Positions 1 to 18,401 of a stretch of DNA of 20,000 bases are shown piece by piece. A model generated the notes under the pieces. That model did not search any database. It was not told the origin of the DNA and worked only from the letters and a program-made list of their open reading frames with translations. Where the stretch lies: IMG/VR virus record IMGVR_UViG_3300034107_000607; one strand, given 5' to 3'. The stretch comes from an uncultured virus (IMG/VR IMGVR_UViG_3300034107_000607) (taxonomy: Duplodnaviria; Heunggongvirae; Uroviricota; Caudoviricetes). Both the position numbers and the translations under genes were made by a program. The first letter of the stretch is position 1, and each line of letters starts with the position of its first letter.

Positions 1-1032
1 ACCAATAGTTTCATTAATGGCGTGAATACACGCCAAGGTGGAACCTATGTAGAATACCTCGTGAATAACGTGATTGATGAGGTTCTAGCACTTATCAAGA
101 AAAAGCACAAGGTCGAGGTTTCCAAGAGTGTTATCAAGAATGGTTTGACATTTGTTCTGTTTGCAAAGAATTTTGTCAATCCAAAGTTTGATAGCCAGAC
201 CAAGGAACGTCTGACCAATCCACTGTCAAACATCAAAGAACATCATGAGACTACCGATGTTCATGACTTCAAGCATATTGCCAAGCGGATCTTTGCTGCA
301 ACGGATATTATTGAACCAATTATTGCTGCACAACTTGCCAAAAAGATGGCAGATGATCGGCGCGACTCTATTGTTGCTCAGAAGAAACTCAAAAAGGTCA
401 AGGTTGCCAAACATATCTCGGCAAATAATGTCAATGCACTTCTTGCCCTTGTCGAGGGTGACTCTGCTATGGGGTTCCTTCTGAAAGTTCGTGATGCTTC
501 AAAGATCGGCGCATATCCACTTCGTGGTGTTATCATGAACACTTGGGATATGAAACCGTCCGATGTTCTTAAAAACAAGGAACTAGGTGAACTTGTTGCA
601 ATCCTTGGTCTTGATATCAATGATCCGAACAGTGTAGACAACATGACGTATCGTGGTGTGGCAACATTGACTGATGCGGATCACGACGGCGCTGGACATA
701 TTTCACCATTGATTGTGGCCTTCTTTTACAAGTTTTGGCCACGTCTCTTGACCGAAAAGCGTATTCATATTACCCGTTCACCGATCATGATCTCAACAAA
801 TGGTAAAGATGTCAAGTGGTTCTTTACATATGATGATGCAACAGAATTTAAATCTGATTGCAAAGGTTACACACACCGATATATCAAAGGCTTGGGATCA
901 TTGACCGAATCAGAATATGACCGTGTTATCAATGATCCGGTCCTTGATACTGTAACAATTGATGATGCAAATTACTTTCAGATCATGTTTGGTAATGACG
1001 TATCTCTTCGAAAGGAAATCATGACAAAATGA
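1..1032 (+). CDS. DNA topoisomerase II large subunit (T4 gp39+gp60 fused), 5'-truncated by the window
   Basis: Toprim motifs EGDSA, PLRG and DADHDG plus C-terminal YIKGLG. The frame is open from position 1. Confidence 0.95.
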   Translation, partial: TNSFINGVNTRQGGTYVEYLVNNVIDEVLALIKKKHKVEVSKSVIKNGLTFVLFAKNFVNPKFDSQTKERLTNPLSNIKEHHETTDVHDFKHIAKRIFAATDIIEPIIAAQLAKKMADDRRDSIVAQKKLKKVKVAKHISANNVNALLALVEGDSAMGFLLKVRDASKIGAYPLRGVIMNTWDMKPSDVLKNKELGELVAILGLDINDPNSVDNMTYRGVATLTDADHDGAGHISPLIVAFFYKFWPRLLTEKRIHITRSPIMISTNGKDVKWFFTYDDATEFKSDCKGYTHRYIKGLGSLTESEYDRVINDPVLDTVTIDDANYFQIMFGNDVSLRKEIMTK

Positions 1033-1244
1033 AAAAGTCAATTATCTTTATTCTATCTGAGCTATTAATGTATGCACTTACCTTGGGTGTAGTCATTATT
1101 GTCCATCCTGCAATTCCGATTCATCTATTGTTTATTGTAGCGGCCATTGTTTACGGTTTTGCAACATCGATGTCATTGTTGCTTGAGTTTACAACCAAGA
1201 TTGCCGTTAATTATTACTATGACCGAAAGGAAAAGAATAAATGA
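1029..1244 (+). CDS. small membrane protein
   Basis: 71 aa with two hydrophobic stretches. ATGA overlap with the upstream gene and overlap with the gp52 start. Confidence 0.7.
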   Translation: MKKSIIFILSELLMYALTLGVVIIVHPAIPIHLLFIVAAIVYGFATSMSLLLEFTTKIAVNYYYDRKEKNK

Positions 1245-2629
1245 GTGGGTTGACAAATTTCTTTGATGGTGATACAGTAGAATCAAATGGTAAAAAGGCT
1301 AAATCAATGATTCGGGAATATCCTATCTCCAAGGTTGCTCGTAACGAGTGGTTACAATTTGCTCTTTATACAGTAGAGGCTAGAGCTATTCCAAGTATGA
1401 TTGACGGTATGAAACCCGTAAATCGCTTTTATCTGTATTCATCTATCAAGAATAGCAAGACCGAATTTAAAAAAGTCAGTGCTGTTTCAGGTGTGTTAAG
1501 CGATTACGGGTATGCACACGGTGAAAGTTCTGCTGCTGGTGCCGGTCAACTAATGGCAGCTGATTGGTCTAACAACATCTGTCTTGTCGAAGGTCGAGGA
1601 TCATTTGGAACTCGTCTAGTTCAGTCTGCAGCCGCGGCCCGCTATACCTACACACGTCTCCACAAGAACTTCAATCGGTATATCAAGGACATTGATCTTG
1701 CTCCTGTGCACGACGATCCTGAACACGAACCACCTTCGTTCTATGTTCCTGTGATCCCTCTGGTTCTTGCCAATGGTGTCAAAGGTATTGCCACTGGTTT
1801 TGCAACAAATATTCTACCGCGTGATCCAGATGATCTTGTCCGTGCATGCCAAGAATACATTAAAACTGGAGACATCAAATCCAAAGTCAAGATCAAGTTT
1901 CCAGACTTCAAAGGAACCGTGACATATAATGCCGACGAAAACCGTTACTATTGTAATGGTATCTTCGAACGGAAGGGCAAGACAGTTCTGCTAATCACTG
2001 AGGTCCCATACGGTTATGATCGTGAAGGGTATGTCGAGGTTCTGGATAAACTAGAAGAAAAAGGCGACATTGTCGGATATGATGATCTCTGTGACAAGAC
2101 TGGCTTCAAGTTCGAAGTCAAACTGAAACAGAATACATCTGCAAACTGGGACGACCAAAAAATCATCTCTGCTTTCAAACTGGCAAAACCATTCAGTGAA
2201 AACTTGACTGTTATTGATAGTCGTGGTAAACTGAAAGAATATGACGATGAACGAAATCTGGTCCGTGACTTCTGCGATTATCGCACAACTATTCTTCAAA
2301 AACGGATTGACCTACGGAAGGTTGAAACAACAGAACTTGCCCGTTGGTTGACTGTCAAAATGCAATTTATCCAAGCTGTTCTTGAGGATAAAATCAAGTT
2401 CAAGAACAAGAAAAAGGATGAAGTTGCAAAACAGATCTTTGAAACCACCGATGCAATTCAAGATGATATTGATCGACTGCTTCGGATCAACATTCTGAGT
2501 TTGACTGCTGAAATGGTCAAGCAACTTGAAACTGAAATCAAAGATGCTCAAAAGGAACTTGTGTATTGGTCAAAAACAACACCCAAGGATCAATTCACCA
2601 AGGACCTTACTGAGTTGACAGCCGCCTGA
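1241..2629 (+). CDS. DNA topoisomerase II medium subunit (T4 gp52, GyrA/ParC-like)
   Basis: RAIPSMIDGMKPV, YAHGE, catalytic AAARY and NGVKGIATGF motifs. Confidence 0.97.
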   Translation: MSGLTNFFDGDTVESNGKKAKSMIREYPISKVARNEWLQFALYTVEARAIPSMIDGMKPVNRFYLYSSIKNSKTEFKKVSAVSGVLSDYGYAHGESSAAGAGQLMAADWSNNICLVEGRGSFGTRLVQSAAAARYTYTRLHKNFNRYIKDIDLAPVHDDPEHEPPSFYVPVIPLVLANGVKGIATGFATNILPRDPDDLVRACQEYIKTGDIKSKVKIKFPDFKGTVTYNADENRYYCNGIFERKGKTVLLITEVPYGYDREGYVEVLDKLEEKGDIVGYDDLCDKTGFKFEVKLKQNTSANWDDQKIISAFKLAKPFSENLTVIDSRGKLKEYDDERNLVRDFCDYRTTILQKRIDLRKVETTELARWLTVKMQFIQAVLEDKIKFKNKKKDEVAKQIFETTDAIQDDIDRLLRINILSLTAEMVKQLETEIKDAQKELVYWSKTTPKDQFTKDLTELTAA

Positions 2630-4016: not shown

Positions 4017-4913
4017 ATGGCATCACGTGTACAACTAATGAAACAGAAGGGACTTATCAGTCCGCCAAGGTGGCTACCTCAAAACATTCACTATGAAGTG
4101 ATCACCGGTTCTGTCAGCTATGCTGTAAGTTCAGACACTTCTGATATGGATGTTGTTGGTTTTTGTATGCCACCAAAAGATGACATCTTCCCGCACCTTC
4201 GTGGTGAGATTCCTGGTTTTGGTTTACAACACAAACGATTTGAATTATGGCAGGAACATCACATCATGGATAATGAATCTCGTCAAGAATACGACTTCAG
4301 TATCTATTCAATCGTGAAGTTTTTTCAACTTGCAATGGAAAATAATCCGAATATGGTTGACATTCTGTTTACTCCACAACGGTGTGTTTTGTATTGCTCT
4401 ACTGTTGCTCAGATTGTCCGTGATAACCGCAAACTATTCTTGACAAAGAATTCGTATCACAAGTTCCGCGGATATGCTTATGCTCAATTGCACAAGATCG
4501 GCACGAAGTCAAATAGTTCCAATCCTAAGCGCCAAGCTGACATCGAAAAACACGGCATGGATCTTAAGTTTGCTTATCATGTTATTCGTCTTGCTCTTGA
4601 GGGTGAACAGATCTTGATGGAGCATGATCTTGACATTGAACGAAATGCTGAAGTCCTGAAAGCAGTTCGTCGTGGTGACTGGAGTGAAGAGAAACTCCGG
4701 AGCTGGTTTGATGCTAAGGAGAAACATCTTGAAGAACTTTATACCAAGTCAACCCTTCGGCATGTGCCGGACGAAGATGCTATCAAGGATCTTCTTATGA
4801 CTTGTCTAGAACAGCACTATGGTTCTCTGGATCAAGCTGTCAAACGCGATGTTCCGGTAGAACGGCTTGTTGCTGAACTAAAGTCCGTCCTTGAAAAGTA
4901 TGAAGGTAGGTAA
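4017..4913 (+). CDS. Pol-beta superfamily nucleotidyltransferase (RlaP/YcgL-like)
   Basis: GSVSYA...SDMD (GS...DxD), NPNMVDIL and KFAYHVIRL motifs. Confidence 0.85.
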   Translation: MASRVQLMKQKGLISPPRWLPQNIHYEVITGSVSYAVSSDTSDMDVVGFCMPPKDDIFPHLRGEIPGFGLQHKRFELWQEHHIMDNESRQEYDFSIYSIVKFFQLAMENNPNMVDILFTPQRCVLYCSTVAQIVRDNRKLFLTKNSYHKFRGYAYAQLHKIGTKSNSSNPKRQADIEKHGMDLKFAYHVIRLALEGEQILMEHDLDIERNAEVLKAVRRGDWSEEKLRSWFDAKEKHLEELYTKSTLRHVPDEDAIKDLLMTCLEQHYGSLDQAVKRDVPVERLVAELKSVLEKYEGR

Positions 4914-5120
4914 ATGGAATTAGGTTATAGAGACCCATTTACCTACAAAAAACTTCCACTGCTCCCAAGTATGAGACTTACAACTCATGTATTGAATATA
5001 GAAAACCTTATTGAGAAACATATGAATGTAGCAGTTCATCAATATATTCATGAACTATCCAGTGGAATAGACCCTCAAGAGAGTAAATGGTACAAAAATA
5101 TTGTTGACAAATGCTTTTAA
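4914..5120 (+). CDS. hypothetical protein
   Basis: 68-aa ORF abutting the upstream stop. Confidence 0.6.
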   Translation: MELGYRDPFTYKKLPLLPSMRLTTHVLNIENLIEKHMNVAVHQYIHELSSGIDPQESKWYKNIVDKCF

Positions 5121-6031: not shown

Positions 6032-6613
6032 ATGACAAATCTTGACCTGCAACAAGTCATCATCTACCGCAACAAGCGACTGAAGCTTGCTCACATTGCT
6101 GTAAACAATATGTTCACGAACAAAGGTCAGAGGAACTACTCTGCAACCTTGAACGGTGCATATAACAGTGCAAAGTATGCAGTTCGAGGTGCCGCAAACA
6201 ACCCTTCTACTGAATATCAGTTCGGTTCGGCCTTTGTGACTCGCTTGATGAATACCGGTATCTCTGAATGGTCGGAAACCGATCGTGTTGAAAACCTGAA
6301 TATGAACCCTGCACTTCGGCTTGCACGTGAACTTCGTGAAACTCTCGAGGCTGAAGGTTATGATGTCACCGGTTGTTTCCGCGGCAAAAGTATCCGCAAC
6401 ACCGGAATCAAAGGTATCACGAATTTCATTATCAAGAATGCGACTCAGGGTCGTATCTTTGATATTGTCGGCAAGTTGACTGTCGGGATCGAAGGTCTAA
6501 ACATCAACAAGACCCGAAACACCATTTACATGCAGTATATCAAAGATCAACTGCAAACTCGCCGTCAAATTTGGTTCTTCATTCAAGAAAATCTGGATAC
6601 CTTGACCCAATGA
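6032..6613 (+). CDS. hypothetical protein
   Basis: 193 aa with GAGGA RBS. Confidence 0.85.
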   Translation: MTNLDLQQVIIYRNKRLKLAHIAVNNMFTNKGQRNYSATLNGAYNSAKYAVRGAANNPSTEYQFGSAFVTRLMNTGISEWSETDRVENLNMNPALRLARELRETLEAEGYDVTGCFRGKSIRNTGIKGITNFIIKNATQGRIFDIVGKLTVGIEGLNINKTRNTIYMQYIKDQLQTRRQIWFFIQENLDTLTQ

Positions 6614-6990
6614 CCGTTATCAAAGCAGAAACTAGCTATCCTAAGTTTTTTGAAAAGTTTGCACAGTTTTTGTGTGTTGAACTTGATATTAGACCCGCAA
6701 AAGTTACTATTGTTCCCTATGAAATGAATGATGGAACTCTTGGTCTTTGTCTTGATGTAACCGAAGATGAATTTCTTGTATTCGTCAAGGAAAAAGATCG
6801 AGATATCGGTTGTATGTGCACGACCATTGCACATGAAATGATCCACGTGAAACAATTTCTGAAAGATAACTTGAACCACTGGATTCACACCTGCTGGGAT
6901 ACTCCATATGATGACCGTTGGTGGGAACAAGAGGCATATACTGACTCGATTCCACTAGTTGTAAAATATGCTGGGACACTTGGTAAATGA
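6610..6990 (+). CDS. putative zinc metallopeptidase (HExxH), paralogue of 3142-3525
   Basis: HEMIHVKQF and WWEQEAY. ATGA-coupled start. Confidence 0.75.
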   Translation: MTVIKAETSYPKFFEKFAQFLCVELDIRPAKVTIVPYEMNDGTLGLCLDVTEDEFLVFVKEKDRDIGCMCTTIAHEMIHVKQFLKDNLNHWIHTCWDTPYDDRWWEQEAYTDSIPLVVKYAGTLGK

Positions 6991-7373
6991 AACCAAAATA
7001 TAAACTTATCGTAGGTCCTACTCAAATGCGAGTAGAAAGGCAATTGTTCAAATCAGAACCAATTGATATCGGCGATGAATATATCACTGCCGACAATCAG
7101 AAAGCAAAAGATTTTTACTACGAGTTCATGCACCCTTCAGTTCAAGAATATGCCAGACTGTTGTGGACTACAAAAAGTATTCGTTGGAATACACTAAAAC
7201 AACAAGTAAAAGGACTTGCAGATATGCATACTATTCTGTACTTCGATGGTCCGTCTTGGATTGTTTCTACCGTGCCTTGGAAACAGGCAAAGTATGAAGA
7301 ATGGTTCGTGGTGCCAATGAAAGTAAAATGGCTTCTAAAGAAATTTTATTTTGAAAAAGTTGAAAAAGTTTGA
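6987..7373 (+). CDS. hypothetical protein
   Basis: 128 aa, ATGA-coupled. Confidence 0.75.
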   Translation: MKPKYKLIVGPTQMRVERQLFKSEPIDIGDEYITADNQKAKDFYYEFMHPSVQEYARLLWTTKSIRWNTLKQQVKGLADMHTILYFDGPSWIVSTVPWKQAKYEEWFVVPMKVKWLLKKFYFEKVEKV

Positions 7374-7402
7374 TCTTTTTTACGAAGTCAACGAAAGCGT
7401 GT

Positions 7403-7410
7403 TATAAATA
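7403..7410 (+). promoter_or_regulatory. T4-type late promoter
   Basis: Exact intergenic TATAAATA. Confidence 0.7.
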
Positions 7411-7439
7411 AAATTACAATTTAACCAACCGAGAGTATC

Positions 7440-7538
7440 ATGACTTCCCTACACGTCTCCTCATTATCAGCGCAATGGACACAGGATAATAATCCTGGTC
7501 GCCAAGTGCTCATAGGCAGAGGAAGTGGGCTGTTTTGA
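7440..7538 (+). CDS. putative 32-aa leader peptide (MTSLHVSSLSAQWTQDNNPGRQVLIGRGSGLF)
   Basis: GAGAG before the ATG. Lies between the late promoter and the terminator, and its stop is inside the putative antiterminator. Confidence 0.55.
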   Translation: MTSLHVSSLSAQWTQDNNPGRQVLIGRGSGLF

Positions 7539-7566
7539 CATAGAAATTCGATAAAAATTCTATCTC

Positions 7567-7605
7567 AAAAAGGCCCAGGAATAAAACCCTGGGCCTTTTT
7601 ATTTT
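7567..7605 (+). terminator. intrinsic terminator
   Basis: AAAAAGGCCCAGG-AATAAAAC-CCTGGGCCTTTTT-ATTTT. Confidence 0.9.
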
Positions 7606-7607
7606 GG

Positions 7608-7636
7608 TTGACAATATAAGAGAATCGGTTTATAAC
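7608..7636 (+). promoter_or_regulatory. sigma70-type promoter of the tRNA block
   Basis: TTGACA-N17 (AGAATCGGTT)-TATAAC. Confidence 0.75.
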
Positions 7637-7659
7637 TGACTTATAAAGGAAATCAAACC

Positions 7660-7670
7660 GCTCTTTGAAA
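7660..7670 (+). promoter_or_regulatory. boxA-like antitermination element
   Basis: GCTCTTTGAAA just after the promoter. Confidence 0.6.
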
Positions 7671-7788
7671 CTAATTACTCCTTGTGGTCTTAGAGGAAAC
7701 TCGATAATAGATCTGAAAAACAGAAGAACAAACTGACGAATGTGTCTGAATGTTCCTTTGTTAGAGGTATTCTTCGGAATACTGAAAA

Positions 7789-7891
7789 TTCTGTTTTCAC
7801 ATGCTCTTTAGTCCGTAATGTAGTACGGTTAACCTCGCCCATTTAGTTGGTTGGACTGGTTCGAATCCAAAAAGAGCAGCTGAAAACAGAA
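7789..7891 (+). ncRNA. stem-enclosed tRNA-like RNA (CTGTTTT family, copy 1)
   Basis: TTCTGTTTTCA/TGAAAACAGAA stem enclosing GCTCTTT/AAAGAGC and a GGTTCGAATCC T arm. Confidence 0.6.
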
Positions 7892-7896
7892 ATAAT

Positions 7897-7972
<76 letters not shown>

Positions 7973-7979
7973 AAATTAT

Positions 7980-8069
7980 GGAGTTGAGAGCTGTCAAGGT
8001 TGGCAGGTCTGCTTGGAAAGCAGAACGTGGTAGAAATACCATGGGAATCGTGCTCCCCCGACTCCGCCA
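7980..8069 (+). tRNA. tRNA-Ser(GGA), 8/4-like
   Basis: Loop TTGGAAA, long variable arm, G73, CCA, 6-bp D stem, T loop ATCGTGC. Confidence 0.85.
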
Positions 8070-8078
8070 AAATAATGG

Positions 8079-8107
8079 TTGACATTACTATAGAATCAGT
8101 ATATATT
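8079..8107 (+). promoter_or_regulatory. sigma70-type early promoter
   Basis: TTGACA-N17-TATATT. Confidence 0.85.
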
Positions 8108-8132
8108 GATTATATAAGGTAAAGGAAACCAA

Positions 8133-8255
8133 ATGAAACAAAATCTCGTCGGCAGCTTCTACAAAGGTCAGAAGATCATTGAAGATGATGGTTTCTTCAT
8201 TCGTGTTGAAGATGGGACTGTTTATTCTCGCTTGAAATCTGGTGGTTTTGCATAA
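8133..8255 (+). CDS. 40-aa hypothetical protein (MKQNLVGSFYKGQKIIEDDG...)
   Basis: AAGGA RBS, between two promoters. Confidence 0.75.
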   Translation: MKQNLVGSFYKGQKIIEDDGFFIRVEDGTVYSRLKSGGFA

Positions 8256-8260
8256 AACGG

Positions 8261-8289
8261 TTGACAAAACCACAGAATCAGTATAATAT
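8261..8289 (+). promoter_or_regulatory. sigma70-type promoter
   Basis: TTGACA-N17-TAATAT with AGAATCAGT in the spacer. Confidence 0.8.
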
Positions 8290-8341
8290 AAACTTATAAA
8301 TCAGGTTAGTTGATGAAACTGTAAACCCTGAATGACAAACC

Positions 8342-8353
8342 GCTCTTTGACAA
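8342..8353 (+). promoter_or_regulatory. boxA-like antitermination element
   Basis: GCTCTTTGACAA followed by TTTAGAA. Confidence 0.7.
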
Positions 8354-8375
8354 TTTAGAACTAAAACAGATTAAA

Positions 8376-8495
8376 TTCTGTTTTGACAGATATACATGGC
8401 GTGCACCAGTCGAAAGATGTAAGCGGGTAGACATGACAGTGTTGCTTGAAACACAGCAGAGAACATCGTGGCAATGTATATCGCTCAAAACAGAG
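8376..8495 (+). ncRNA. stem-enclosed RNA (CTGTTTT family, copy 2)
   Basis: TTCTGTTTTGA-CA-GATATACAT pairs with ATGTATATC-GC-TCAAAACAGAG. Confidence 0.6.
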
Positions 8496-8498
8496 TTT

Positions 8499-8575
8499 GG
8501 GGGATTAGAACAATTGGTTAGTTCAGCTTCCTCATAAGAAGACGGTTGGCGGTTCGAGTCCGTCATCCCCTACCA
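8499..8575 (+). tRNA. tRNA with CAT anticodon (Ile2 or elongator Met)
   Basis: Cloverleaf, loop CTCATAA, A73, CCA. Confidence 0.85.
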
Positions 8576-8579
8576 AACA

Positions 8580-8643
8580 TATCGGTACTGGTGTTAATCA
8601 AATCACCACCAGTTAAATCGCCCAAGAGCGGATGGGTAGAGCC
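8580..8643 (+). ncRNA. three-way-junction repeat, copy 1
   Basis: TATCGGT-[hairpin]-TAAATC-[hairpin]-AGAGCC, homologous to 8922-8986. Confidence 0.55.
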
Positions 8644-8652
8644 AAACACATT

Positions 8653-8729
8653 GGTTCCTTAGCTCAGTTGGATAGAGCATCCGCCTTCTAAGCGGAATGT
8701 CGTAGGTTCGAATCCTACAGGGACCACCA
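8653..8729 (+). tRNA. tRNA-Arg(TCT)
   Basis: Canonical cloverleaf, A20, CCA. Confidence 0.97.
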
Positions 8730-8734
8730 AATTT

Positions 8735-8915
8735 TTAGACCTCATCATTGAGGAAATAGGTAAAGTAGTGGAATGGTGCAACCCGGATAGCACGCCCGCG
8801 TGAAGCGGGAGACAAGGTTCGAATCCTTACCATGAAAAGCTGGGATCACTGGTTCGAAACAGTTCCCTAGTTTGGAGTAGCTAACCAACAATATTTCTTC
8901 AATTATGAGGTCTAA
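8735..8915 (+). ncRNA. long-stem RNA with tRNA-like D/T core, copy 1
   Basis: 23 of 24 bp terminal stem. Homologous to 14455-14624. Confidence 0.7.
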
Positions 8916-8921
8916 TAAACT

Positions 8922-8986
8922 TATCGGTATTGCTTCGGCCTGATCGAAGAAGCAACTAAGTCGCTCAACATAGCCTGAGCAGAGCC
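8922..8986 (+). ncRNA. three-way-junction repeat, copy 2
   Basis: TATCGGT-[hairpin]-TAAGTC-[hairpin]-AGAGCC. Confidence 0.55.
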
Positions 8987-8995
8987 AAAAACATT

Positions 8996-9070
8996 GCGGG
9001 TATGGTATAGAGGATGTGCCCTAGCCTTCCAAGCTAGAGAGGACCGGTTCGATGCCGGCTACCCGCTCCA
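8996..9070 (+). tRNA. tRNA-Gly(TCC)
   Basis: Loop CTTCCAA, U73, CCA. Confidence 0.9.
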
Positions 9071-9075
9071 AATAC

Positions 9076-9192
9076 ACACCATCGCCTATCACCAAGAGTA
9101 AAAGAGGGATGAGGTTGATAGGTTCTTAGCGGAATACTGCGATGAACTGATCCAAGGCAGCCCGAGCCAAGGTCAGAGAAGTAAGATGGTGT
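9076..9192 (+). ncRNA. unidentified multibranch RNA
   Basis: ACACCATC/GATGGTGT closing stem with three internal hairpins. Confidence 0.45.
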
Positions 9193-9220
9193 TAATTATA
9201 GTATTTTAAGAGGGCAATTT

Positions 9221-9850
9221 ATGTCTAGAAATGAAGATTGGGTTGCAACCGTAATAGCAAATTTAGAAGTAAATGAAAATGGAATTGCACTAGATATAGG
9301 AGCAAATCATGGAATTTACTCAAAATTACTTGCATCAAAATTTGGGAAAGTTTATTCATTTGAACCACACCCAGACAATGTAACAAAGATTAAAGCTAAA
9401 GTTACTGAACAAAATGTTCAAATAGAACAAAAAGTAATTGGAACATCAGATGGTGTTATTGATCTTTTTGTTTGTTCTGCAAATGATGGTGGTCACACTA
9501 TTATGGAAGGTTTGGCAAAACTCAAGAAATGGGGACATTCAGTAAACAATACTATACAAGTACAATCAATAACACTTGATACATTTTGTAAAGATATCAA
9601 AGTTGATTTTATTAAATGTGATATTGAAGGTGGTGAATATGAAATATTTTACCATGGACAAGAAATTCTTACTAGAGATTATCCTACAATTGTCTTAGAA
9701 ACACATCAAGTATCTGACATAAAAAGTGACCAAGTTAAACGTGACAAATTATTTAAATACTTCAAGGATTTGGGGTTTTCAATTCTAGATACCAAAAATA
9801 ATGAAGTTGTAGCATTTACATATGACACACACTATCTAATACAAAAATAA
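9221..9850 (+). CDS. FkbM-family SAM-dependent methyltransferase
   Basis: LDIGANHG, FEPHP, TLD and IKCDIEGGE motifs. Confidence 0.9.
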   Translation: MSRNEDWVATVIANLEVNENGIALDIGANHGIYSKLLASKFGKVYSFEPHPDNVTKIKAKVTEQNVQIEQKVIGTSDGVIDLFVCSANDGGHTIMEGLAKLKKWGHSVNNTIQVQSITLDTFCKDIKVDFIKCDIEGGEYEIFYHGQEILTRDYPTIVLETHQVSDIKSDQVKRDKLFKYFKDLGFSILDTKNNEVVAFTYDTHYLIQK

Positions 9851-10843: not shown

Positions 10844-10855
10844 GCTCTTTGACAA
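10844..10855 (+). promoter_or_regulatory. boxA-like antitermination element
   Basis: (T)GCTCTTTGACAA followed by TTTAGAA. Confidence 0.7.
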
Positions 10856-14413: not shown

Positions 14414-14425
14414 GCTCTTTGACAA
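14414..14425 (+). promoter_or_regulatory. boxA-like antitermination element
   Basis: GCTCTTTGACAA followed by TTTAGAA. Confidence 0.7.
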
Positions 14426-18325: not shown

Positions 18326-18401
18326 GATCCCGTAGCTCAGATGGTTAGAGCATGCTCTCTAAAAGCAAATGTCGTGGGTTCGAGTCCCACTGGGGTCACC
18401 A
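18326..18401 (+). tRNA. probable amber suppressor tRNA(CTA)
   Basis: TGCT-CTCTAAA-AGCA anticodon arm with normal D, T and acceptor arms, A73, CCA. One nucleotide short 5' of the anticodon stem. Confidence 0.7.

Follow-up and report, generated by a model that had tools for sequence, protein, structure and literature searches.

We examined positions 7403 to 7605 of a 20,000-nucleotide stretch of DNA (here, the window) from an uncultured virus (IMG/VR record IMGVR_UViG_3300034107_000607). The stretch comes from an 80-kb IMG/VR contig (G000), estimated to be 40% complete, and the phage is a divergent T4-like phage from lake water. Between the gene for a 128-amino-acid (aa) protein and the main tRNA array of the phage (array 1) lie, in close succession on the plus strand, a T4-type late-promoter octamer, a short leader open reading frame (ORF), a hairpin that overlaps an intrinsic terminator, and the terminator itself (Table 1); together these are called unit 1. 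In the window, 25 tRNA genes are called from position 7897 onward, and 35 are called in the whole contig. An earlier reading made from the letters alone (the sequence-only reading) had proposed that this stretch gates late transcription into the tRNA array by sensing translation of the leader. Comparison of sequences across genomes suggests that positions 7403 to 7605 are probably a leader-peptide (ribosome-mediated) transcription attenuator heading the main tRNA array.

Table 1. Coordinates of the features discussed (window positions unless another contig is named)
Feature	Position	Strand	Remarks
Topoisomerase II subunits	1-2629		At most ~45% identity to cultured T4-like phages
128-aa gene, upstream of unit 1	6987-7373		Uncultured homologues exist
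T4-type late-promoter octamer	7403-7410	+	Exact match
Purine-rich, Shine-Dalgarno-like stretch	7431-7435	+	4 bases 5' of start codon; weak match to consensus Shine-Dalgarno sequence
Leader ORF	7440-7538	+	ATG start, 32 codons with stop
Alternative (antiterminator) hairpin, 5' arm	7527-7545	+	Contains stop codon 7536-7538
Alternative hairpin, 3' arm	7558-7576	+	7567-7576 doubles as terminator 5' arm
Intrinsic terminator and U-run	7567-7605	+	Stem 7567-7579/7588-7600, 13 pairs, -22.0 kcal/mol
Sigma-70-type promoter	7608-7636	+	Consensus -35, 17-base spacer, -10 with 5/6 matches
boxA-like motif	7660-7670	+	Four exact plus-strand copies: also 8342-8352, 10844-10854, 14414-14424
Structured leader RNA of tRNA operon	7686-7790	+	Three hairpins; near-invariant core; covariation in hairpins 1 and 3
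First called tRNA gene of array 1 (Thr, UGU)	7897-7972	+
Unit 2 (leader, alternative hairpin, terminator)	G000 contig 68092-68330	-	~13.1-13.3 kb upstream of window, same orientation

At the core of the unit are two RNA folds that compete for the same bases. The alternative hairpin pairs 17 of its 19 positions, with one G-U pair and mismatches at 7532/7571 and 7539/7564, and folds alone at -17.1 kcal/mol. It has ten bases in common with the terminator (7567 to 7576), five of which belong to the G+C core (7572 to 7576), and the terminator stem-loop (7567 to 7600) is the sole strong terminator-like site on the plus strand of the 20-kb window. The octamer, the 32-codon ORF, and the 17-of-19 hairpin are all found where the sequence-only reading had placed them; it was also correct that the stop codon sits in the 5' strand of the hairpin and that the bases shared by the 3' strand make the two folds mutually exclusive.

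Capture of the terminator arm by upstream sequence was compared with capture in shuffles of that sequence. Equally good capture arose in 8 of 500 shuffles for the window, and the counts for five lineages, window first, were 8, 1, 1, 4, and 0 of 500. Folded in silico, RNA extending to the end of the terminator 5' arm formed the alternative hairpin in all five lineages. For the full transcript, the terminator and alternative states were predicted at -59.5 and -51.0 kcal/mol, respectively, in the window; -50.5 and -52.2 in relative L012; -43.4 and -49.8 in L008; -48.4 and -49.1 in L014; and -53.1 and -56.7 in L011. In four of the five lineages the alternative state equals or exceeds the terminator state in stability, the window being the exception, and read-through would therefore be expected in the relatives in the absence of interference. 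The leader stop codon lies inside the 5' arm of the hairpin in the window and 5 bases deeper into the same arm in the relatives, a placement that is partly forced because all three frames close within ~25 bases there.

The stretch as a whole folds at -66.5 kcal/mol (z of -5.7 against shuffles), and within the window ORF the start region pairs with the stop region as a rod (z of -2.7). This rod-like fold was considered as a conserved RNA and rejected (z of -0.48, 0.06, -0.28, and -1.24 in relatives). Between the window and a near-identical locus (L009), all five differences over 1290 bases fall within 7389-7448, from the promoter to the start of the leader; among them, a two-base change in codon 3 weakens the rod.

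Relatives were sought by scanning IMG/VR and metagenome contigs with an alignment of homologues of the 128-aa protein, which yielded loci at 52 to 65% identity; relatives at ~80% protein identity also exist (P0002-P0008). Five divergent uncultured relatives (L008, L011, L012, L013, and L014) retain the octamer, the ORF, the alternative hairpin, and the terminator. In L008, L011, L012, and L014, the 128-aa homologue is followed by two more small genes and then by the unit, with an ORF of 27 to 31 codons, a conserved start, and a -35-like hexamer and boxA-like motif after the terminator. The L013 unit, which was outside the training set, was recovered by a covariance model of hairpin plus terminator (69.5 bits). 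The same model found no further copy of the unit in G001 (a complete relative) or G002, and its weak 17-bit match in G000 is the second unit described below. At L010 the octamer and the first 19 leader codons are retained before the sequence diverges, and at L007 the unit is absent behind the 128-aa homologue.

Covariation was counted over six lineages, which represent about three clades. Over its 15 outer pairs, the alternative hairpin had 94.4% of 90 cells paired and 3 of the 15 pairs altered on both sides, against 26 to 48% paired when one arm was slid by 1 to 3 columns as a control; an earlier count over all 19 pairs gave 86% paired, with 5 pairs altered on both sides. The 10 terminator pairs were also conserved (96.7% of 60 cells paired; 5/10 altered on both sides; 0/500 shuffles as high). 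One shared column (alignment column 56 of A6) shows covariation with its pairing partner in each of the two structures, and the overlap of the two structures in five core bases is kept in every lineage. Conservation of the antiterminator had been named beforehand as a point on which the proposal would stand or fall; it is conserved in the five divergent relatives, with compensatory changes in both hairpins.

A second unit (unit 2; Table 1) in the same contig has the same architecture and a sequence unrelated to that of unit 1. It comprises overlapping early-type and late promoters, a good ribosome-binding site, a 19-codon ORF, and a hairpin that captures 8/8 bases of the 5' arm of a strong terminator (0/500 shuffles as good). 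Directly behind the terminator are a boxA-like motif (68095-68109) and then eight tRNAs (Ile, Tyr, Phe, Glu, two Lys, Met, and Cys), here called cluster 2. Because there is no promoter between the terminator and these tRNAs, their expression there needs read-through. G001 also has unit 2, where it heads 13 tRNAs of the same kinds.

Scanning for boxA-like motifs preceded by a U-run returned 33 loci, 7 of them with tRNAs behind; the other 26 were chance matches inside coding sequence. Among the seven tRNA loci, L037 and L058 are identical, L062 and L065 are identical, and L063 has a different context. In both L045 (genome G003) and L065 (G005, complete and of unrelated sequence), an ORF stops at the 5' arm of a hairpin, which in turn captures the terminator arm (9/9 bases in L045, 6/9 in L065; 0/500 shuffles each). 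The tRNA array served by the latter is called array A; a second array of G005 (array B) has a 48-codon ORF and a terminator upstream. The sequence-only reading had advised looking for the layout before tRNA arrays of related phages; a comparable layout heads tRNA blocks at unit 2 in G000 and G001 and in the unrelated G003 and G005.

In G000, G001, and G005, the tRNA genes are sorted into two blocks whose amino-acid kinds are nearly non-overlapping. For G000 and G001 the division is as follows: array 1 carries Ala, Asp, Gly, His, Leu, Asn, Pro, Gln, Arg, Ser, Thr, and Val (plus Trp in G001); cluster 2 carries Cys, Glu, Phe, Ile, Lys, and Tyr; and Met occurs in both groups. Among the 31 residues that follow the start of the window leader, array-1-only kinds account for 28 and cluster-2-only kinds for 2 (background 0.31, P = 0.001); in the unit-2 leader, cluster-2-only kinds supply 10 of the 18 residues. 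The two leaders are therefore complementary in make-up (Fisher, 9.3e-5 in G000 and 2.7e-4 in G001).

Codon reading by tRNAs was scored with conservative wobble rules, and 2000 dinucleotide shuffles served as the control; for L011-L014 the G000 tRNA sets were used as stand-ins. The unit-2 leader has 11/18 codons read by its own tRNAs both in G000 (background 0.32, P = 0.009; 2/2000 shuffles as high) and in G001 (background 0.25, P = 0.0013; 0/2000). Corresponding values were 15/25 for the G003 leader (background 0.20, P = 1e-5; 1/2000), 30/40 for G005 array A (background 0.49, P = 6e-4; 5/2000), and 38/47 for G005 array B (background 0.38, P = 3e-9; 0/2000). In the array B leader, 2 codons are read exclusively by tRNAs of the other array (background 0.39, P = 5e-8). 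For unit 1 of G000, 23/31 codons are read by its own tRNAs (background 0.57, P = 0.038), a test of low power because array 1 reads more than half of all codons. In the share of codons read by own tRNAs, the other two frames score far lower than the leader frame, except in G001 unit 1. Avoidance is the more informative measure for unit 1. Codons read only by cluster 2 make up 1/31 of the window leader (7/2000 shuffles as low) and 8/29 and 4/28 in the other two frames; the five other unit-1 leaders contain 0 to 1 such codons (shuffles as low, 2 to 38 of 2000), and the share is 28 to 42% in eight ordinary window ORFs taken as controls.

The promoter and the reading frame were also assessed separately. 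Three copies of the octamer lie in the window, where 1.18 are expected; in the 80-kb contig the gene strand carries 14 copies and the opposite strand 3, often 20 to 40 bases 5' of long ORFs. By this distribution it appears to behave like a real late promoter in this phage. It is invariant in 6/6 aligned units and is also found in L013 and L010. The leader ORF uses 28 different codons, counted by eye, including all four Gly codons and four Leu codons. This tally, to which the sequence-only reading had attached weight, stands as a count, but 28 different codons in 32 is near the random-codon expectation, and the Gly and Leu features are not kept in relatives. Since the window contains 222 ORFs of at least 30 codons, the length of the leader ORF alone proves nothing.

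Frame 0 of the leader is free of stops in 6/6 lineages, and the other frames hold 1 to 3 stops; the chance of such openness across three clades is roughly 0.02. The start codon is conserved alongside the purine-rich stretch, which is kept at an equal distance from the start in all units. The L012 and L008 leaders differ in length by 3 bases, in frame; third-position changes occur within an invariant Asn-x-Gly-Arg stretch; and the replacements that separate the L008 and L014 leaders, read by eye, are conservative. PHROGs contained no homologue of the leader peptide. A remnant of a longer late gene was considered as the origin of the leader and rejected: the long form at L010 diverges after residue 19, and its tail aligns with internal repeats of proteins of 477 and 711 residues, not with their N terminus. 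In G000, G001, and G002 no match was found by a search that is blind to 30-residue matches. At L010 (2013-2192, on a short contig), the 19 leader codons run into repeat-like sequence, either as a recombinant or as an assembly chimera.

Immediately behind the terminator is a sigma-70-type promoter, which the promoter scan missed since its -10 ends in C and which was read by eye. Its -35 is kept in relatives, and it belongs to the early-type promoter family of the array. Near-consensus sigma-70-type promoters (11/12 matches) with a shared spacer motif occur on the plus strand at 5104, 5975, 8079, 10621, 14016, 15111, 15420, 17437, and 19522, and downstream of most members of this family come a strong ribosome-binding site and small ORF, or a tRNA. 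Because the first tRNA is separated from the terminator by the sigma-70-type promoter and the boxA-like motif, only upstream (late) transcripts would be gated, and the array can therefore be supplied early without the switch. Late in an infection of the T4 type, -35-dependent promoters are shut off, and read-through from 7403 would become important at that stage. The proposed gating of transcription into the tRNA array would consequently apply to transcripts that start upstream, but not to those from the promoter after the terminator, which would escape the switch.

Copies of the boxA-like motif lie shortly after promoters or directly behind a terminator, and the motif is kept in 6 relatives, including L008, L011, L012, L013, and L014. 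The core of the motif agrees with the Escherichia coli boxA as implied by PMC3177189; in rRNA operons boxA is the site of NusB/NusE. Its assignment as a -35 element was rejected, given that no -10 follows it and that its variable base is the variable base of boxA. The motif suggests that the phage may borrow host Nus-dependent antitermination for its tRNA operons. The structured RNA that comes after it matched no Rfam family and is followed by a tRNA-like element and then by tRNA-Thr. Two tRNA-like stretches, 7806-7880 and 7983-8068, are uncalled by ARAGORN or Rfam. The second, by eye, combines a 7-pair acceptor stem, a GGA anticodon loop, and a 3' CCA with a long variable arm and an odd T arm; if it is a real tRNA, it would read two of the unmatched Ser codons of the leader.

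These features can be assembled into the following mechanism. Late transcripts would start after the octamer at 7403, and transcripts from farther upstream would also cross the stretch. The nascent RNA would first form the hairpin 7527-7545/7558-7576, sequestering the 5' arm of the terminator, and transcription would read through to the boxA-like site, the structured leader, and the tRNAs. A fast ribosome would reach the stop codon in the 5' arm and melt the hairpin, whereupon the 3' arm would pair with 7588-7600 and transcription would terminate at the U-run. If the ribosome were slow, or stalled earlier in the leader, the alternative hairpin would stay intact and transcription would continue. 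Translation of the ORF, choice of the fold by ribosome position, and tRNA shortage as the signal are each something that we infer. Given that the leader uses array-1 kinds and avoids those of the other cluster, the signal is most likely the decoding speed of the codons served by the array, which would amount to negative feedback on tRNA supply. More tentatively, and with slightly less than even confidence, we suggest that each phage tRNA block has its own codon-matched leader attenuator, which opens when any sampled codon is decoded slowly. Such slowing could reflect the codon demand of the phage itself or a host defense in which anticodon nucleases cut tRNAs; if this wider proposal is true, the sorting of tRNAs by amino-acid kind reflects separate sensors.

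Several observations weigh against the attenuator or against its codon-specific signal. At full length, the window transcript at equilibrium prefers the terminator by 8.5 kcal/mol, and neither an anti-antiterminator nor a pause (1:2) hairpin is conserved, the rod being absent from relatives. Unit 1 is represented by only about three clades, and the compensatory events are therefore few. Codon adaptation of the leader (0.54) is near the out-of-frame value (0.53), against 0.72 for genes; the C-terminal half of the peptide is unconserved, and the hairpin arm is read in a different frame in the window than in the relatives. The sigma-70-type promoter after the terminator could feed the array even if nothing read through. 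The overlap of hairpin and terminator is only ~2 bases in G005 array B, and in L042, a fragment estimated to be 8% complete, an alternative hairpin is present but neither a leader nor a codon match is clear. As for the codons, enrichment is weak in G000 unit 1 (141/2000 shuffles as high) and in G001 unit 1 (24/29, background 0.71, P = 0.11; 420/2000 shuffles as high). Moreover, the codon hypothesis arose from unit 2, the leaders of G003 and G005 array A had already been read before their statistics were computed, and only G005 array B was found and tested afterwards. The tRNA-pool sensor of the sequence-only reading finds support in a more specific form: the codons of the other cluster are avoided and four other leaders are enriched for those of their own block, but enrichment in the window leader itself is weak.

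Three other explanations were weighed against this evidence. The same ribosome-driven switch might sense only whether the leader is translated (through global capacity, coupling, or early versus late access to the start codon) and not particular tRNAs. The leader has no run of a single codon, its enrichment in unit 1 is weak when taken alone, and known antibiotic-sensing leaders act by general stalling; in addition, the antiterminator is the default fold in relatives, so loss of initiation alone would give read-through. We nevertheless regard a switch of this kind as unlikely. It does not account for the frame-specific avoidance of the other cluster's codons in 6/6 unit-1 leaders, for the strong enrichment of own-cluster codons in 5 other leaders, or for the complementarity of two leaders within one genome (by the Fisher tests above).

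The remaining two explanations dispense with regulation by the ribosome. According to one, the ORF is a small late gene for a functional peptide of ~30 residues, its ordinary terminator insulates the next promoter, and the hairpin stabilizes or processes the mRNA. The promoter directly behind the terminator needs insulation, and the conserved start, the third-position changes within the Asn-x-Gly-Arg stretch, and the conservative replacements between L008 and L014 speak for a peptide gene. However, the five-core-base overlap kept in every lineage and the column that covaries in both structures speak against it, and with the alternative fold as stable in 4/5 lineages, a plain terminator would be leaky without reason. 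The architecture also recurs with unrelated sequences before other tRNA blocks, including unit 2, where no promoter follows the terminator; these points, together with the lack of a peptide homologue in PHROGs and the match of the L010 tail to inner repeats and not to an N terminus, make this account distinctly unlikely. The other account, a noncoding late RNA of ~190 bases from promoter to terminator with the ORF as a chance frame in a stable fold, we consider very improbable. The stretch does fold far better than its shuffles, the window ORF has the rod that joins its start and stop regions, codon adaptation resembles that of noncoding sequence, and ORFs of such length are common. Yet the rod is unconserved, all lineages keep frame 0 and no other open, it is in this frame that the codon bias is found, the start codon and purine-rich stretch are conserved, and the RNA matches no Rfam family. 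A leader-peptide attenuator thus remains our preferred explanation.

No cultured relatives were found. Positions 7380-7660 found no match among cultured phages in a phage collection searched in distant mode, nor did the neighboring 128-aa gene, and queries of that collection with the units of L008 and L011 matched tRNA genes alone. In IMG/VR, the exact terminator pattern matched only the identical contig, the hairpin pattern matched only the contig of L008, and the promoter-start-promoter pattern matched 6 loci, of which 2 were known and 4 were chance matches without an ORF or terminator. The stretch is carried unaltered in assembled contigs from two DNA sequencing runs; a contig from an RNA library spans 7251-7460 at a depth of 2.6 and may be DNA. 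Just 5' of the tRNA region, at 4017-4913, is a nucleotidyltransferase gene (PHROG 388) whose nearest kin are in Caulobacter jumbo phages (54 to 58% identity); its product may be a tRNA CCA-adding or repair enzyme. Suppressor-type tRNAs occur within the arrays, with a CUA anticodon in three phages and UUA in G005 (window 18326-18401; L007 4460-4534; L069 18139-18214; L076 6390-6462).

The usual view of phage tRNA genes is that they are constitutive accessories, which match codon usage or replace tRNAs lost to host defenses, and their regulation by the phages that carry them is little described. If the proposed attenuator is real, it would feed back directly on decoding capacity, bring a new class of genes under a textbook mechanism, and give the grouping of phage tRNA genes into blocks a reason that can be tested. 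Units of this type would also be compact natural parts, of ~200 bases, that report the decoding speed of chosen codons, and the boxA-like motif would link phage tRNA arrays to antitermination of the host rRNA type. A full-text literature search, with subscription journals mostly outside its scope, found neither attenuation of tRNA genes nor boxA in phage tRNA arrays; leader-peptide attenuation with tRNA genes as the product is apparently an undescribed form of control.

The closest parallels are the attenuators of enterobacterial amino-acid operons (trp, his, leu, thr, pheA, and the multivalent ilv), in which, as proposed here, a translated leader stands between promoter and genes, a terminator is opposed by an exclusive upstream hairpin, and the stop codon is placed so that a finishing ribosome melts the antiterminator. 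In those operons the codon content of the leader is tied to the regulated product, as it may be here, and the ilv leaders sense several amino-acid kinds at once, as this leader would. In contrast to those operons, the genes regulated here would be tRNAs and not enzymes, the leader samples many codon kinds without single-codon runs, a phage late promoter would drive the unit, and a boxA-like site follows. Further, there is no conserved 1:2 hairpin, so a complete lack of translation should yield read-through here and not superattenuation. The pheST attenuator, with its pheM leader, and the T-box riboswitches also use transcription attenuation to tune the decoding apparatus to the state of tRNA. 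However, pheM senses one amino acid and controls a synthetase, and T-boxes bind uncharged tRNA directly, without a leader peptide; a T-box covariance model had no match in 6500-9500 at E values up to 1. Antibiotic-responsive leaders (erm, mef/msr, and vmlR type; see PMC4335068) resemble the proposed switch in that stalling in the leader preserves an antiterminator and no amino-acid run is needed, but their signal is a drug, their genes encode resistance proteins, and their leader codons have no link to the product. Finally, the boxA-like motif shares its core with the boxA of rRNA operons (PMC3177189), which, with the nut sites of lambda, serves NusB/NusE-dependent processive antitermination, and like them it lies early in transcripts of structured untranslated RNA genes; unlike them, the phage motif, a putative Nus-factor site, lies downstream of an attenuator and outside its switch.

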